Below, piece by piece: positions 7,032-35,828 of a stretch of DNA of 64,000 bases. Source of the DNA: Candidatus Baldrarchaeota archaeon. Lineage in GTDB: Archaea > Asgardarchaeota > Baldrarchaeia > Baldrarchaeales > DXJG01. A program made the translations under genes and the position numbers. The stretch is from assembly GCA_019056805.1 (NCBI GenBank), contig DXJG01000007.1, positions 1,992 through 65,991 of the forward strand. Reading direction: 5' to 3'. How positions within the stretch are numbered: the first letter of the stretch is position 1; each line of letters starts with the position of its first letter. The notes below the pieces were generated by a model that saw only the letters and a list, made by a program, of their open reading frames with translations, was not told the DNA's origin and did not search any database.

Positions 7032-9194
7032 ATGAATGAAATATTAATTTCAGCTGTTTTGATCCTTTTACCTAATATTTTAATAGCTTTGATTGTCCTT
7101 TTGATGAGATATACTCGTTTTAAAGAAATTGCATTGCGTACAGGAATAGCCTTCTCTGCGTTTTGGCTAATATATTGTATTGGCTCAAGTATAGTTTTCA
7201 ATTTGATCGGAGTTGAACCGAACTTAGTTTATTCTTCCCGAGATTTTTCAATATCAAACTTAAAGACTCTTGCAACTTATGTAGTATCTCTAGCAATATA
7301 CTCTCTCACTTTGACAATCACTTACCCGGTTTTCATGTTCCCATTTGTTTTCTTCCTTGCTCCTATAATAGCCGTTTTAATTCTACTTTACGCCGTTAGA
7401 GGAAGAGGAATAAAAGAAATAACTTTTTGGATCGATTTAAAACCCAAAAGATTGATGGGGTGGGATGAAGAAAAAGAGGTTTTGAAACTTTTAATAGCTC
7501 TTCTACCTGTTTCTCTATATTTCTTAACATCATTACTACGAATATTGAAATACGAGGAAGATCCGCTTTCGGTTGGTAGTACCTTGTTGGGCTGGGTACT
7601 TGAAATTTATATGCTTTTTCTTTTATCTTTCATAGTGGCGGTGAATCTTCTTTATACTTCTCGTGTTTATCACGGAAACAGGTTTGTAGGTGAAACTATT
7701 AGAAGAAATACCTTCAATAATCTCTTATCTATAAGTATTGTGCTTTCGTCCGTAAGTCTTATACTTTTTGTACAAATTTTCAAGGGAATCATCTACGTTT
7801 TCATATACTTCTCACTATATTACATTGCGATAACTATTATTTTCCTTTCATTCTTCAAAGTAATGGAACCAACTTCCGTGTATATCTTTGCTAAAATTCT
7901 AACTTTTATGAGAGATGAAAATAAATTCCAAAGAATATTTGAAAAAAGAACGCTTGTACTAGGCATTATAGTTGGTATAGTGGTTACTTTAGCTTCTCTT
8001 TTCTGCACATACGCTTTTATATCGGTTTATTGGAGCTACGTGAATATAGATCTAGATGCCCTTTTAGGTGAATGTTCTTTAGATAGCAGCCCCTCCCTGG
8101 AAATTTTGGAAATTTTAAACATACTTATTTCTTTAGGATCTTTACAAAGATTTTTTGAAATAGCAATTATAATGTTTCTTATCTATGCGCTCAGAAATAT
8201 GGTTAAAATAAAATTTTTCATAGCTGGCATATATGTAGGCATATTTAAGGTATTTGCTGACTATCCCCTTTTACAGCGCGCAACTAAAGCTTGGACTACA
8301 ACTGTATTTTCAAGTGCGAACATTGGTTTCGTCAACATTTTAGTTCCAAGGTTTGCCTATCTAGGATTGACAACTTCTTATCTGGGTTCATCTGTCTATC
8401 AATTTATAGTCATACCTATACTTCTCCTTAAACTTTTAGCAACACTCTTAGTTTTTACTGTTTTAGTTTACTTAAAATTTGGTAAACTTGTTCAGTTTAT
8501 CGATGTTGAAGCTGGACATCAAATAAAATATATATGTGAAGTTGAACCTGACTATATTACTCCTAACTCGTTGATAAAACTGAAAATAGCAAAAATATTT
8601 GAAGAAAAAATTCCAGAAGATCTTTTACAGATCGTAGAATTCTTTAAGACAAAAACATACACTTTTCAAGAATTAAAAGAAAAATTAGGCATGCCTGATG
8701 AAAAATTAAAGAAAATTCTCCGATATCTGCATGAAAATTACATTATTGACATTTACGACTGCGAATTTAAAATAGTTACACCAGCACCAGTGATAGAAGG
8801 AATATATATTGTGAATACAGACGGTATAGCTCTGTACAGTAAGTCATTTGGTGAAGTAAAAGTCGAACCTTTATTGATTTCAGGTATGCTTTCAGCAATA
8901 ACTAGCTTCGTTAAAGAAACAACAAGAAGTCAACAATATTTGCAAGCTATTGATCACGGTGATGTCGTTCTCATGATAGAATATGGAGATGGATTTTTCG
9001 TCACCCTTTTGGCGAACAGAGAAACCCCTGAAATTCGTATGAAATTAAGGGAATTTGTTAGGCGATTCCAAGAAAAATACGGTGAAATTCTCAAACGATG
9101 GAGTGGAGATCCCGGTGAATTTGAAAATGTTGAAAAATTAGTCAATGAAGTTTTTGAAATCACATCTACTAGTGAAGAAATAACCACTACCTAG
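7032..9194 (+). CDS. Polytopic membrane protein with C-terminal cytoplasmic domain (putative roadblock/longin-like alpha/beta domain)
   Basis: First ~500 aa contain many hydrophobic helices; C-terminal ~220 aa are hydrophilic with pattern GIYIVNTDGIALYSKSFG...LISGMLSAITSF...FFVTLLAN...KRWSGDPGEF, homologous to the C-terminus of the 48963..51935 protein. Confidence 0.8.
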   Translation: MNEILISAVLILLPNILIALIVLLMRYTRFKEIALRTGIAFSAFWLIYCIGSSIVFNLIGVEPNLVYSSRDFSISNLKTLATYVVSLAIYSLTLTITYPVFMFPFVFFLAPIIAVLILLYAVRGRGIKEITFWIDLKPKRLMGWDEEKEVLKLLIALLPVSLYFLTSLLRILKYEEDPLSVGSTLLGWVLEIYMLFLLSFIVAVNLLYTSRVYHGNRFVGETIRRNTFNNLLSISIVLSSVSLILFVQIFKGIIYVFIYFSLYYIAITIIFLSFFKVMEPTSVYIFAKILTFMRDENKFQRIFEKRTLVLGIIVGIVVTLASLFCTYAFISVYWSYVNIDLDALLGECSLDSSPSLEILEILNILISLGSLQRFFEIAIIMFLIYALRNMVKIKFFIAGIYVGIFKVFADYPLLQRATKAWTTTVFSSANIGFVNILVPRFAYLGLTTSYLGSSVYQFIVIPILLLKLLATLLVFTVLVYLKFGKLVQFIDVEAGHQIKYICEVEPDYITPNSLIKLKIAKIFEEKIPEDLLQIVEFFKTKTYTFQELKEKLGMPDEKLKKILRYLHENYIIDIYDCEFKIVTPAPVIEGIYIVNTDGIALYSKSFGEVKVEPLLISGMLSAITSFVKETTRSQQYLQAIDHGDVVLMIEYGDGFFVTLLANRETPEIRMKLREFVRRFQEKYGEILKRWSGDPGEFENVEKLVNEVFEITSTSEEITTT

Positions 9195-28496: not shown

Positions 28497-28581
28497 TCTC
28501 ATGTAAATATCCTTGATTTATCATTCCATTAGTTCTTCAATTTTCATTTATTTGTTAGTTAGGATGTTTTGAGTTATTTGA

Positions 28582-30891
<2,310 letters not shown>

Positions 30892-30954: not shown

Positions 30955-31653
30955 TTATTTTGTGGTGTCTAGTTTTTTGGAGAGTTCTTCTATGGTTATT
31001 GGAAGTGCGTATTCAAATGTACATGCTTTTGCTGAATTAATCTGGCATTCCACTTCTTCTGATTTAACTACAGGTACTCCTAGGTATTCGAGTGACCCTA
31101 ATATGAAACCGTTTACAAATTCACATACTTTTTTATTTTCTGGTTTTCCATCGCAAGGACAATTCGCAACTGAAATAGTTATTTTTCGATCTGTTGGTTT
31201 AAATTTTTCCACTCTATAACTTAATCTTGGCAACATAGTGGGAACAAATATACCTAGTACATATTCGAATTCAATAGGTTTACTTTCTCCTTTAAGTTGC
31301 ATATCTTGATATTTAGAGCATAGTTTTCCCAGTTTATATCCGATTTCAAAAGGTGAGGGCAAGTGTTTTTTCTCAAGAAACTCATCTAATACTTTGATGA
31401 GGCTTTGTATAAGGAATCTTGCTATGTCGGTTTTTCTATATTTGAAGGTTGTACGAAGAAGCCAGAAAGTATATTTTCCTATATTTCTACTAACAACAAG
31501 TCCGGCTTTTTCCAGTTCTGGCATATATTTTGCGATCGTATTACGATGTCTCTTTGTAACTTCGGATATTTCCTCGATTGTCATGCCCCACACGGTTCCT
31601 TCTAAGGCATTTAAGATCTCTTCAACTATTTTTTTATTTAGTTTCTTGATCAA
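30955..31653 (-). CDS. HTH-type transcriptional regulator with C-terminal Cys-rich V4R-like ligand-binding domain
   Basis: N-terminal winged-helix pattern (MTIEEISEVTKRHRNTIAKYMPELEKAGLVVS); C-terminal CPCDGKPENKKVCEF...ECQINSAKAC. V4R assignment is tentative. Confidence 0.7.
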   Translation of the reverse strand: MIKKLNKKIVEEILNALEGTVWGMTIEEISEVTKRHRNTIAKYMPELEKAGLVVSRNIGKYTFWLLRTTFKYRKTDIARFLIQSLIKVLDEFLEKKHLPSPFEIGYKLGKLCSKYQDMQLKGESKPIEFEYVLGIFVPTMLPRLSYRVEKFKPTDRKITISVANCPCDGKPENKKVCEFVNGFILGSLEYLGVPVVKSEEVECQINSAKACTFEYALPITIEELSKKLDTTK

Positions 31654-31736
31654 CTCTGGTACTCACCTTTGGCACTGCTTTGACTGATACTCTCCTACTC
31701 TTTCATCTAAGTTAATAATCATTACCATATATAAAA

Positions 31737-31784
31737 ATGTGCATTAATGCACATAAAGTTTATATGTGCATTAATGCACATATA
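31737..31784. promoter_or_regulatory. Two copies of a perfect palindrome ATGTGCATTAATGCACAT (second copy extended to 24 bp TATATGTGCATTAATGCACATATA), centres 27 bp apart
   Basis: Read directly from the sequence; lies between the divergently transcribed regulator gene (start 31653) and the ABC operon (start 31887). Candidate operator pair. Confidence 0.6.
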
Positions 31785-31886
31785 CATGTAGTTACCTATA
31801 CACTAATCAAGATCCTAGTACTACGGGTGGAAACCGTGGGACAAAAGAACCCCTCAGACAGTAATAAGCAAGGAAAACCGGTTCAT

Positions 31887-33008
31887 ATGATCTCCATTGC
31901 TGGCGAAATCTTCGAAACAAAAGTATTAGCAGTAATTCTACCAATGTTTGCAATAATGGAGAGTTTGAGTTTTCTAGGAAACTTTTACACAGTTACATCT
32001 ATCTTTCAGACACCTCTCAACTACGTTACAAGCATTATCGTAATTTTCTTCAGTCTTCTAGGCACATATGGAACAGTCAAGAAAAATAGGTTTTTGCTTC
32101 ATCTATCATTACTAGCACCCATCACGATTATAATTTCTACAATTCAATTTCTAATTATTTCTAAAACTTCCCTGCAAACTATTTACCTGATATCTGGAAT
32201 TTCTGTTTTAGGAATAAGCTTACTTTGCCTTTACACTTCTTATAGAACCTTATCCTATTTACAAACTTTACAATCTTCCATCTCAGAAACACGAGAGAGG
32301 ATAAAAAGTGAGTATACGGTGGAACTTATTGATGTGGTAAAAATATACAAGATAGGGCCAATTGAGGTTCCAGCATTAAACGGTGTGAATCTTAAAATTA
32401 AGAAAAGAGAGTTTGTAGCAATAATGGGTCCTTCAGGTTCGGGTAAATCAACTCTTCTACATATAATTGGTGCATTAGATCGACCTACTTCAGGCAAAGT
32501 TATCATTGATGGAGTAGATATTTCCACCCTCAGCAATGATGAACTTGCAAAACTGCGTAATAAAAAAATTGGCTTTGTTTTTCAAGCATACAACCTAATT
32601 AACAGATCTACAGTGCTTAGAAACGTTGAGTTACCTGCACTTATAGGAGGAACGTCTAAAAAAGAGCGTATAAAGAAGGCTATTAAACTACTTGAGACCT
32701 TAGGGCTGAGTGATACTATTTATAGGAAACCTAAGACATTAAGTGGCGGTCAACAACAGCGTGTGGCTATTGCTAGAGCAGTAATCAATGATCCAGAAAT
32801 CATTTTGGCTGATGAACCTACTGGAAACCTTGACTCTAAATCAGGTAGAGAAGTTATGATGTATTTAAGAAAAATGAATAGAGAATTAGGAACAACCATA
32901 ATTGTTGTTACCCATGATAGAGAAATTGCTGAGATGACTGATAGAATAATTCACATTCGAGATGGAAAAATCATTGGAGAAGAGGTTTTAAGGAGGAAAG
33001 AAACATGA
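31887..33008 (+). CDS. ABC transporter ATP-binding protein (MacB/LolD-like) with an N-terminal four-helix membrane segment
   Basis: Walker A GPSGSGKSTLL, Q-loop, signature LSGGQQQRVAIARA, Walker B ILADEPTGNLD. Start set at the first ATG after the palindrome region; an in-frame GTG further downstream would give a conventional ATPase without the membrane segment. Confidence 0.85.
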   Translation: MISIAGEIFETKVLAVILPMFAIMESLSFLGNFYTVTSIFQTPLNYVTSIIVIFFSLLGTYGTVKKNRFLLHLSLLAPITIIISTIQFLIISKTSLQTIYLISGISVLGISLLCLYTSYRTLSYLQTLQSSISETRERIKSEYTVELIDVVKIYKIGPIEVPALNGVNLKIKKREFVAIMGPSGSGKSTLLHIIGALDRPTSGKVIIDGVDISTLSNDELAKLRNKKIGFVFQAYNLINRSTVLRNVELPALIGGTSKKERIKKAIKLLETLGLSDTIYRKPKTLSGGQQQRVAIARAVINDPEIILADEPTGNLDSKSGREVMMYLRKMNRELGTTIIVVTHDREIAEMTDRIIHIRDGKIIGEEVLRRKET

Positions 33009-34639
33009 AGAAACCATATACATTTTTAATTATTGCGATTTTGATGATATTTATCGTAAACATAAGCTTTATGAATGTAGTCTATGCTCAAACTTCCGTG
33101 GATTTTGAAATACTTAGAGTTGTTTGGGGAACTCCCCAAGATAATCCTATAATTGTTAATCCGGGAGACACAAATGTACCTCTCACAATATATGTGAAAA
33201 ACAATTCTAGTGAAAGCCTTGTAGGTGTTAGAGGAGAATTAAATCTTACAGAACCGTTTAGGCATACTGAAAACAATAATTATTCTGCTATCTCTATCGG
33301 GACACCCATTGAAAGTAGCAATGTTCTTTCGCCAACAGGAGAAGTTTTACCATGGGGCACCTTTACCCTAACATACCATTTAAACATAAATAACACCGCT
33401 AAGAAAGGCACATACACGTGTACATTAACCATATACTACACAGTAAACTCCAGTACCCTCGGTTATGTCCCAGGCGTACCTAGAACCTATTCCGTAACAA
33501 TTATTATATATAATCGAGCACCATCTATTGAATCTTATCGACCAGCCGATCTAAATGTCGCTGTTTATGTAAATGATAGTGTAGAGTTTTTTGTTAAATG
33601 CAGCGATCCAGATAACGATACTTTGAGCTATGAGTGGACTTTTGATGGCGAAGTTGTTGCAACTACAAATAATTATACCTATATAGCTACGGAAGATGAT
33701 ATTGGAACTCATAATTTAGAGTTTGCAGTTGACGATGGCGAACTTAGAACAACTATGACATGGACCATCACTGTTACAAAAACAATCATAACATATGTTA
33801 ATGTAAGTAGTAATTATCTTTTTGGCGGCTTTGAAACAGAAGTAAACATAACAATCAGAAATAATGCATGGGACGGAACTGTCCAGATTTCCTTTGGTAT
33901 TCAATCACCTCTAGTTATTCATGGAAACAGTTCTTGGACATTTAAGTCAGTGTTTCCAAATCAAGAACTTACCGTACCCGTAGTTATTTATGTTCCTAAA
34001 GCTGCTATAGGTAACACGTTCACAGGAACCTTAACAATAAGTTACGACGATGAATATGGAAATAGCTATACAGAAAACCATAACATTGGTTTTGTGGTCA
34101 GAGGCCAGGTGTCTTTGGTTGCTTATGATTATGCAATTATACCCAATCCGGTTTCGCCAGGTGAAAAGGTTTCAATCAGTGCAACTTTATTGAATAAAGG
34201 TACAGTGACGGCAATGTTTGTTAATGTATCGATTCAACCAAATGAGGTTTTACTTTTATCTCAAGAAAGTAGTAGCTATATTGGGGAAGTTGAAGAAAAC
34301 TCTCCAGTTCCCTTTACAGTTTCGGCCTATGTTAAGTCAGATGTCCAAAATGGAACGTACCCAGTAATAATTACTATTACTTATACAGACGATTTATTCG
34401 AAGAACATTTGTTTAACATTACAGTGGAAATAACAGTACAAAAGTCGTCTGGAGACGAAACAGCGTCTGAAGAAAAAGTTGGTTTCCTTGAATTACTTTA
34501 TCGCGGTGGTTTGACCATCTTAATAAGTGTAGTAACGTTAATCGCAATTGTAGTGCTTTACCTTAAAAGATCCGCAAAACCTCTGCCTACTTCTTTCATG
34601 TTTGTAAACTATCCGCTTGGTGGTAACATTGAATATTGA
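33005..34639 (+). CDS. Secreted/surface protein with PKD-like beta-sandwich domains and C-terminal TM anchor, encoded inside the ABC operon
   Basis: Signal peptide MKKPYTFLIIAILMIFIVNISFMNVVYA; PKD-like segment SDPDNDTLSYEWTFDGEVV; C-terminal helix LTILISVVTLIAIVVLYL followed by KRSAK. Start overlaps upstream stop (ATGA). Confidence 0.8.
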   Translation: MKKPYTFLIIAILMIFIVNISFMNVVYAQTSVDFEILRVVWGTPQDNPIIVNPGDTNVPLTIYVKNNSSESLVGVRGELNLTEPFRHTENNNYSAISIGTPIESSNVLSPTGEVLPWGTFTLTYHLNINNTAKKGTYTCTLTIYYTVNSSTLGYVPGVPRTYSVTIIIYNRAPSIESYRPADLNVAVYVNDSVEFFVKCSDPDNDTLSYEWTFDGEVVATTNNYTYIATEDDIGTHNLEFAVDDGELRTTMTWTITVTKTIITYVNVSSNYLFGGFETEVNITIRNNAWDGTVQISFGIQSPLVIHGNSSWTFKSVFPNQELTVPVVIYVPKAAIGNTFTGTLTISYDDEYGNSYTENHNIGFVVRGQVSLVAYDYAIIPNPVSPGEKVSISATLLNKGTVTAMFVNVSIQPNEVLLLSQESSSYIGEVEENSPVPFTVSAYVKSDVQNGTYPVIITITYTDDLFEEHLFNITVEITVQKSSGDETASEEKVGFLELLYRGGLTILISVVTLIAIVVLYLKRSAKPLPTSFMFVNYPLGGNIEY

Positions 34640-35828
34640 AAAGTATCTTTCTCTTCTACCCCTTTCCTTTGAAGCACTAAAGGAACGAAAGTTACGTTCT
34701 ACTTTAACAATTCTCATGGTACTTGTTGGTAGCGGTCTTCTTGTTGCAGTTAATGGGATTAGTACAGGAACTTTAACTTATATTGACCAACAATTTTCGA
34801 ATTTAGGTGCAAACTTGATAATTATGACTCCTAGAGGCACAGATTTTGAAATTGATGATAATATAGTTAAGGAAGTTTCTCGTATTGAAGGTGTAACTGA
34901 GACTATTCCCTTTATACAATCGGTAGTTCGTATAGAGTCTAGGAGAGAAAGCCAATCAGTAGTTGCAGTAGGGGTAGATCACTCTAAGCTCCACTTAATA
35001 TTTCCAACCCTTAAATTAGAAGAAGGAAACCTTGTGTCTTACACAGACAGTGTAGGAATTGTTCTGGGCAATTTGGTTGCTTATGGTTCAGGCGGAGAAC
35101 CTTTCGCAACAGTTGGGCAAACAGTGAAACTAAGGTATAGTACTACGATTGAAGGAGAACAAGTCGTATTTGAGAAAAATTTCATAGTTCGTGGAGTATT
35201 GGAATATATAGGTAGTGGTTTAATACCTGTAGATCAAATGGTTTTCATCTCGCTCCCTGCAGCTAATTCGTTTTTTGAACGACACAACAAATATGATGGA
35301 ATATATATAATAACGGCTGATCCTTCTTTGAACGATGAAATTATGGATCAGCTACAAGATATGTATAATGTAAATGTTCTTTCGCCACAAACTATTATTG
35401 AAGTAATTAATCGAGTTAGTAATGCAATATCATTCTTTGTAGGTAACATAGCTACGGTATCACTTCTTGTAGCTTCTATCGGAATTATTACAACTCTTTG
35501 GACCTCTGTACTCGAGAGAATAAGGGAAATAGGTGTACTAAAATCCATAGGATTTCAAGAAAATGACATACTTGTTCTTTTCTTAAATGAAGCCGCTATT
35601 ATAGGTATGATTGGAGGGACTTTAGGTTTAATTTTTGGAGTTATACTTGCTCGTATTCTCATGATAATCATATCACCAGAATTTGCAACCGTTATACAAC
35701 CTATTTTCACCGTGGAAAGCTTGGTTTCTACATGGCTTCTCAGTTTAGGTTTAAGCATAGTCGCTGGACTTTATCCAGCTTGGAGAGCGTCAAAACTCGA
35801 CCCAGTGGCAGCACTAAGACATGAATAA
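34617..35828 (+). CDS. ABC transporter permease, FtsX/MacB-type
   Basis: N-terminal TM (KLRSTLTILMVLVGSGLLVAV), large extracellular domain, then a C-terminal three-helix FtsX-like bundle; overlaps the preceding gene by 23 nt. Confidence 0.85.
   Translation: MVVTLNIEKYLSLLPLSFEALKERKLRSTLTILMVLVGSGLLVAVNGISTGTLTYIDQQFSNLGANLIIMTPRGTDFEIDDNIVKEVSRIEGVTETIPFIQSVVRIESRRESQSVVAVGVDHSKLHLIFPTLKLEEGNLVSYTDSVGIVLGNLVAYGSGGEPFATVGQTVKLRYSTTIEGEQVVFEKNFIVRGVLEYIGSGLIPVDQMVFISLPAANSFFERHNKYDGIYIITADPSLNDEIMDQLQDMYNVNVLSPQTIIEVINRVSNAISFFVGNIATVSLLVASIGIITTLWTSVLERIREIGVLKSIGFQENDILVLFLNEAAIIGMIGGTLGLIFGVILARILMIIISPEFATVIQPIFTVESLVSTWLLSLGLSIVAGLYPAWRASKLDPVAALRHE

Follow-up and report, generated by a model that had tools for sequence, protein, structure and literature searches.

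Conserved Palindromes as Candidate Operators of a Winged-Helix V4R Regulator at a MacB-Type ABC Transporter Locus of Asgard Archaea

Introduction

Local repressors of the TetR/AcrR and MarR types are encoded divergently from efflux or ABC pump operons, and their inducer is often a substrate of the pump. MDR1, LrpA, Phr, and TrmB are archaeal repressors that act by occluding promoters. The switch proposed in the present study, in which a palindromic operator sits on divergent promoters beside the gene of its own regulator, is textbook in design. In discussions of the origin of eukaryotic trafficking proteins, V4R/TRAPPC3-like domains figure as precursors, and a candidate regulator built on such a domain therefore offers a concrete, testable function for one of them. 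The V4R/TRAPPC3 domains of Asgard archaea and of PoxR form homodimers and have a ligand cavity and a four-cysteine zinc site, which ties the sheet to a helix, and the study of the Asgard TRAPPC3/V4R domains suggests that ligands bind in the internal cavity (PMC10933270).

MsvR, which consists of an HTH and a V4R domain, is a methanogen-specific V4R regulator known from Methanothermobacter (MTH1349) and Methanosarcina (MA1458), and MaMsvR is a homodimer (PMC3729527). In Methanothermobacter, MsvR is encoded divergently from its target operon, and the shared intergenic region contains at least two inverted-repeat boxes (PMC3729527). The boxes overlap the start site of the target and the BRE/TATA of msvR itself, autoregulation proceeds by blocking of TBP/TFB, and DNA binding depends on the V4R cysteines (PMC3729527).

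The window, a 64-kb stretch of a Candidatus Baldrarchaeota contig that was analysed over its whole length, contains an arrangement of this kind: a regulator gene on the minus strand, a MacB-type ABC operon on the plus strand, and two palindromes between them. Like MsvR, the window regulator has an N-terminal HTH and a C-terminal V4R domain with conserved cysteines, it is encoded divergently, and its putative sites have the same promoter geometry. The spacing of C177, C203, and C211 (26 and 8 residues) equals that of C206, C232, and C240 in MaMsvR when published residue numbers are compared. However, the NCBIfam MsvR model NF053755 gives the window regulator only 23.8 bits against a cut-off of 220, and the match is confined to the HTH (residues 3-56). 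The operator is also different, with TGTGCATTAATGCACA here and TTCGTAN4TACGAA as the MsvR box; no MsvR box with up to three mismatches is present in 31654-31835, and the window-wide count of such boxes is not above chance. On the model score and the operator, membership of MsvR was rejected. Moreover, MsvR belongs to methanogens and controls oxidative-stress genes, whereas the window regulator comes from an Asgard archaeon and has a MacB-type ABC operon as its putative target; the window family also has a fourth conserved cysteine, C165.

The locus shares with the TetR/AcrR- and MarR-type repressors and with the archaeal promoter-occluding repressors a divergent regulator and pump, palindromic operators over the core promoter, and predicted autoregulation. 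In contrast to the TetR/AcrR and MarR types, the fold is a winged helix-turn-helix (wHTH) joined to V4R, and the promoter is archaeal and TBP/TFB-dependent. By analogy with those repressors, a pump substrate may act as the inducer of the window regulator, which is a guess. A full-text search found no paper with the motif, and no transcription factor/operator pair for Asgard archaea was found described in the literature search. What appears to be new is an Asgard-restricted regulator family with a defined 16-bp candidate operator and a defined target, the MacB-type ABC-Ig-FtsX operon.

Two Palindromes in the Intergenic Region

Site 1, the regulator-proximal predicted operator, occupies 31737..31754 and consists of the 18-bp perfect palindrome ATGTGCATTAATGCACAT, with the 16-bp core at 31738-31753. 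Site 2, the ABC-proximal predicted operator at 31761..31784, is the 24-bp perfect palindrome TATATGTGCATTAATGCACATATA; a second copy of the 18-bp sequence lies at its centre (31764-31781), with the core at 31765-31780. In the core, the half-sites TGTGCA and TGCACA flank TTAA and are 10 bp apart, which is one helical turn. The initial annotation, made from the letters of the window, had described the 18-bp repeat, the extension of its second copy to 24 bp, and a distance of 27 bp between the two centres, and remeasurement returned the same coordinates and the same distance. It had also placed the regulator gene about 85 bp away, and the start of that gene is indeed 84 nt from site 1. The open reading frame that begins at 31737 (MCINAH...) had been called an artefact of translating the palindromes; this is borne out by its first 33 codons, which have no counterpart in orthologues except for the near-identical locus L001.

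Apart from these two sites, the window has no perfect palindrome of at least 16 bp, and no further match to the 18-bp sequence with up to three mismatches is found across the 64 kb. The G+C content of the DNA is about 34%. In first-order Markov simulations, palindromes of at least 18 bp are expected at a mean of 0.53 per window, and a 24-mer palindrome arose in 2 of 200 runs. Two matches to the 18-bp sequence occurred in none of 100 dinucleotide shuffles. Chance is ruled out for the pair because the identical sequence occurs twice, while one palindrome alone would be unremarkable.

The Regulator and Its Family

The regulator gene (30955..31653, minus strand) encodes 232 residues from a TTG start, which is preceded by a Shine-Dalgarno-like AGGTGA at 31663-31668. 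The protein comprises an N-terminal wHTH (about residues 7-66) and a C-terminal V4R/TRAPPC3-like sensor domain (about residues 67-232). The Pfam V4R model (PF02830) scores 30.0 bits over residues 160-214 against a cut-off of 31, and a precomputed PF02830 match exists for 14 of the 19 regulator homologues found. Matches to the Pfam models TrmB, HTH_24, and HTH_11 are weak and all under their cut-offs. The AlphaFold2 model (pLDDT 88) divides the protein into a winged helix and, after it, a second domain of about 165 residues, and the former has the element order of a wHTH, with helices at 7-18, 26-33, and 37-49 and strands at 53-58 and 61-66. Foldseek relates the N-terminal domain to ArsR-type winged helices (6j05, 3cuo) and the C-terminal domain to TRAPPC3/Bet3, the V4R domains of PoxR and MopR (both phenol-sensing), MJ1460, and H-NOX. 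Among these, TRAPPC3 (6aq3, E=4e-4), PoxR (5frw), and MJ1460 (2oso) reach a probability of at least 0.99 each. The C-terminal domain has the Bet3-like two-layer alpha/beta fold, with probabilities of 0.98-1.0 and target-normalised TM scores of 0.38-0.49 to TRAPPC3, Bet3, PoxR, MopR, and MJ1460.

The sensor domains of PoxR, MopR, and DmpR and the Thor-TRAPPC3 protein thus have the same fold as the C-terminal domain by Foldseek. However, PoxR, MopR, and DmpR are bacterial sigma-54 enhancer-binding activators, and Thor-TRAPPC3 consists of the domain alone and lacks a DNA-binding part, whereas the window regulator joins the domain to a winged helix and is linked to a defined candidate operator.

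In the alignment of 19 homologues, T33, H36, R37, N38, T39, K42, and Y43 of the recognition region are invariant, as are G59, K60, Y61, and W64 of the wing. Among the cysteines, C165, C177, and C203 are conserved in at least 90% of the homologues and C211 is invariant. The family is small, with 15 representatives at E<=1e-30 and 44 at E<=1e-10 among 1.84 billion proteins. The named homologues and their loci all belong to Asgard MAGs (Baldr-, Njord-, 'Asgardarchaeia', and Promethearchaeati), and the databases label the family only as 'hypothetical protein' or 'predicted hydrocarbon binding protein'. The regulator represents a separate, undescribed, and Asgard-restricted family.

A distant subfamily (P0051-P0056) has an altered recognition helix (HRATVKKY, HRVTVQKY) and an altered wing (GYYT.V), and two of the four cysteines are missing; its operator probably differs from the core found here. 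The distant members P0052 and P0059 (L151 among the contigs) show no clear palindrome, but their contigs are just about 1 kb long.

The ABC Operon and Its Start Codon

The operon consists of three genes on the plus strand. The first (31836..33008, GTG start as corrected below, 390 aa) encodes an ABC ATPase of the MacB/LolD type, with Pfam ABC_tran at 4e-37 and NCBIfam MacB/LolD-like matches that remain under the equivalog cut-offs. The second (33005..34639) encodes a 544-aa protein that has hydrophobic segments at both ends and weak Ig/PKD/Big_9 matches, and for which no relative was found among PDB sequences. Its gene lies between the ATPase and permease genes in all loci. The third (34617..35828) encodes a MacB/LolC-like permease, in which MacB_PCD (5e-18) and FtsX (6e-20) are matched in Pfam and MacB is matched in the PDB at 5e-22. 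The combination of a MacB_PCD and FtsX permease with a LolD/MacB-like ATPase places the system among the type VII (MacB/LolCDE-type) ABC transporters.

The initial annotation had taken ATG 31887, about 100 bp from the palindromes, as the start of the ATPase gene. This part requires correction, since the start is most likely GTG 31836: a Shine-Dalgarno-like GGGTGG at 31825-31830 precedes it, and the N-terminus read from it, MGQKNPSDSNKQ, aligns with the starts of the orthologues (MGQKN..., MKPEK...). With this start, the 24-bp palindrome would therefore end 52 nt before the start codon. Public gene calls misplace the ABC start likewise, at an ATG inside the palindrome, in L001 (2655-3923, 422 aa), L010 (near 3856), and L149 (2325). 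The ATG triplets within the palindrome thus mislead gene callers into an over-long ABC ORF.

The ATPase also carries an N-terminal membrane extension of about 150 aa (31836 to about 32320), which contains several hydrophobic segments and has no Pfam match. The extension is common to all ATPase orthologues (378-398 aa) and is unusual among ATPases that pair with a separate FtsX/MacB permease.

Conservation Across Asgard Loci

Loci that encode homologues of the regulator were fetched from public assemblies and metagenomes. The regulator gene almost always adjoins the same ABC-Ig-FtsX genes, mostly in divergent orientation. In every divergent locus fetched, the intergenic region contains the 16-bp core or a variant with one to three mismatches, at 30-92% identity of the regulators to that of the window. 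Within about 250 kb of window and locus DNA, all matches with up to three mismatches are located between the regulator and ABC genes, save for L074, where the core lies just upstream of the ABC gene on a contig that shows the ABC and Ig genes, but no regulator gene, and then ends. Earlier advice had been to look for other copies of the palindrome: the 64-kb window holds no more of them, and other Asgard genomes carry the core at the orthologous locus.

The best local alignment between the intergenic region of the window and each of eight distant ones is centred on the palindrome every time, and the core is the sole intergenic element conserved across the orthologous loci over this range of regulator identity. 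Among 29 unique sites, the information content is 1.2-2.0 bits at all 16 positions, and the flanks are merely A/T-rich. The 14 variant site types contain 22 changed base-pair positions, of which 20 break the palindrome and 2 keep it; as the variants mostly break the dyad, the sequence itself is conserved, as expected of an element recognised by a protein, and not a hairpin.

The co-directional arrangement was read in L149, and the other co-directional loci (L009, L139, L140, L143, L148, and L150) were left out. L149 has the order ABC-Ig-FtsX-regulator on one strand, with two sites upstream of the ABC gene and none upstream of the regulator gene. It follows that the element is a part of the ABC promoter and accompanies the regulator family.

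The twin nature of the sites stands for the window and is lineage-specific beyond it, as relatives have one site (L006, L012, and L146), two, or three (L013). Centre-to-centre distances among the relatives are 27, 41, 48, 51-55, and 76-78 bp, with no helical phasing. A cooperative phasing of the twin sites was rejected on this variation, and cooperative binding of two dimers is unsupported because the spacing is neither conserved nor helically phased.

In the single-site lineage, several independent assemblies break 30-95 nt from the palindrome, inside the start of the ABC gene (L005 1-96, L007 1-46, L008 1-110, and L141 1-96). The 36-bp palindrome TTTATAAATATGTGCATTAATGCACATATTTATAAA may have caused these breaks during assembly.

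Predicted Promoter Geometry

A predicted BRE/TATA for the ABC operon is located at 31755..31766 on the plus strand and reads AAAG TTTATATG; its TATA box covers 31759-31766, with the centre about 73 nt before GTG 31836. The regulator gene has its predicted TATA box, TTTTATATAT, at 31727..31736 on the minus strand, and its TTG start follows 78 nt further downstream. For calibration, strict TATA-like octamers were located for eight other genes of the window, where they precede the start codons by 59-86 nt, and both predicted boxes fall inside this range. Transcription would then start near 31790 for the ABC operon and near 31704 for the regulator, as inferred from these positions. The orientation of the promoters and the starts are predictions, because a TATA box in AT-rich DNA reads almost alike on both strands.

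On this prediction, the two TATA boxes stand back to back with site 1 between them, and site 1 is on the BRE side of each promoter. Site 2 starts within the 3' end of the box of the ABC operon, falls between this box and the predicted transcription start, and covers about -25 to -8. In most lineages, AAA(A/G)TTTAT(A/T)A again comes after the upstream site when this is read towards the ABC gene; on the side of the regulator TATA box, the flank TTTTTATATA is also found in L001, L002, L036, and L135, and the single site of L006 has TTTATAAAT on either side. The element is thus a conserved, dyad-symmetric motif over the predicted core promoter that is co-inherited with the regulator. A scan for bacterial sigma-70 promoters found none, as expected for an archaeon, and its 'terminator' calls are the palindromes.

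Occurrence of the Motif Outside Asgard Archaea

A motif-only scan of 185,579 species genomes with the 16-mer gave at least 119 matches, mostly bacterial. Five of the matches listed are from Asgard archaea; a regulator homologue stands beside the transporter genes in four of them, and L074 is the fifth. No regulator homologue is found near any of the 114 non-Asgard matches listed. The 16-mer occurs with conserved flanks in Massilia, Undibacterium, and Oxalobacteraceae (L015, L019, L025, L028, L042, and others), in Halomonas (L016, L075, L077, and L122), and in Achromobacter (L033, L046, and L101). These bacterial lineages contain no homologue of the Asgard regulator, and their copies are presumably the operator of an unrelated bacterial regulator. 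Since the 16-mer is conserved in bacteria that lack the regulator, the motif is not unique to the Asgard regulator family.

In an Archaeoglobaceae MAG (L048, 2679-2708), the 16-mer forms the centre of the 30-bp perfect palindrome GACATTTTGTGCATTAATGCACAAAATGTC. Its surroundings contain only short ORFs, beside nucleotidyltransferase- and PIN-like ORFs, and no regulator or ABC homologue was detected near it.

Proposed Mechanism and Alternative Explanations

The initial annotation had proposed that the palindromes are operator sites of the adjacent dimeric HTH/V4R regulator, through which it would regulate itself and the operon, and all computational tests agree with this proposal. The conserved palindrome is very probably the binding site of the adjacent regulator, judging from linkage and conservation. 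In its full form, the proposal is that the palindromes serve as operators for a homodimer of the adjacent wHTH-V4R regulator, which represses its own gene and the ABC-Ig-FtsX operon, and this is probable. One regulator dimer would bind each 16-bp core, a fit suggested by the half-sites, which are one helical turn apart and thus suit two recognition helices. The invariant recognition helix and wing would match the invariant operator. A dimer bound to site 1 would occupy the BRE/TFB side of both promoters, and the bound regulator would block the assembly of TBP, TFB, and RNA polymerase, so that both the gene of the regulator and the MacB-type ABC-Ig-FtsX operon would be repressed. A signal sensed by the V4R domain would then release the regulator. 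This signal may be a hydrophobic small molecule in the V4R cavity, perhaps a substrate of the pump, or a change of the four-cysteine site in its thiol/redox or metal state; the two candidates are considered because MsvR is associated with thiol/redox or metal and PoxR/MopR with a hydrophobic ligand. We infer repression rather than activation, and likewise the existence of an inducing signal.

It is rather unlikely that the adjacent regulator binds the sites but activates, or that it has a dual role and activates from site 1 upstream of the BRE while repressing from site 2. TFB/TBP-recruiting archaeal activators such as Ptr2 and TFB-RF1 bind upstream of TATA/BRE, and site 1 is placed in the same way, immediately upstream of both predicted TATA boxes. 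In addition, the regulator promoter has no purine-rich BRE, as the operator itself takes up the sequence before its TATA box, and this promoter might therefore require assistance. However, site 1 is separated from the TATA boxes by 0-5 nt, which leaves no room for the TFB-BRE contacts. The ABC-proximal sites lie between TATA and start codon in all lineages, and MsvR, which has the same geometry and is the nearest analogue to have been characterised, is a repressor.

It is very unlikely that the palindromes are bound by something else, for instance a global transcription factor or a chromatin protein, and that the neighbouring regulator acts elsewhere. The assignment of the binding protein comes from linkage, bacteria without the Asgard regulator use the same 16-mer, and on the Archaeoglobaceae contig it is part of a palindrome that spans at least 30 bp and has no homologue of the regulator in its vicinity. 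Against this, the motif in Asgard archaea is found only beside the regulator family or the ABC operon, both in the loci of about 250 kb and in all five Asgard matches listed. Operator and recognition helix are co-invariant, and the window has no further copy.

It is highly improbable that the palindromes act as a nucleic-acid structure, whether a hairpin in the leader RNA, an attenuator or terminator, or a DNA cruciform. A consensus scan does find them terminator-like on the minus strand, but base identity and not pairing is kept, the stems are AT-rich with only six G-C pairs, and the sites are at the predicted starts or further upstream, in a stretch between divergent genes that requires no terminator. 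Rfam returned hairpin matches of the miRNA type, all of them far under the gathering scores, and a known RNA was rejected on this noise. The comparative data effectively refute the idea that the palindromes are a repeat that arose by chance, or that they were left by a mobile element or recombination site and regulate nothing. A single 18-bp palindrome is no great rarity in AT-rich DNA, but two identical copies are absent from all shuffles, the core is kept at the same promoter through 30-92% protein identity and a change of gene order, and there are no other copies in the window or the loci and no transposase nearby. A replication origin (ORB) and a mobile element were likewise rejected as readings, the motif being tied to the operon across lineages with no other copies.

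A wider idea, which is quite doubtful at present, is that the members of this Asgard-restricted family are transcription factors that sense lipids or hydrophobic ligands with a domain considered ancestral to the TRAPP subunits of eukaryotes. Their target would be a MacB-type 'mechanotransmission' ABC machine, which would work at the cell envelope together with an Ig-like surface protein. If this were true, the family would show a role of a V4R/TRAPPC3-like domain in Asgard archaea and, with its invariant 16-bp operator, would provide a ready-made, experimentally tractable transcription factor/operator pair for them.

Additional Observations

In L001, a relative that is 92% identical, a rubrerythrin-like gene (93 aa; 7232-7513) lies between the CDC48 and hexapeptide-transferase genes, and at the corresponding position the window has a gap of 166 nt alone (28497-28662). 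The taxonomy labels of the relatives are inconsistent: two regulators that are each 84% identical to that of the window are assigned to Baldrarchaeota (L036) and Odinarchaeota (L054), and a partial regulator homologue (P0004) is labelled Thermofilum. Similarly, the 90% cluster of CDC48 is mostly labelled Baldrarchaeota, and one of its members is labelled Bathyarchaeota.
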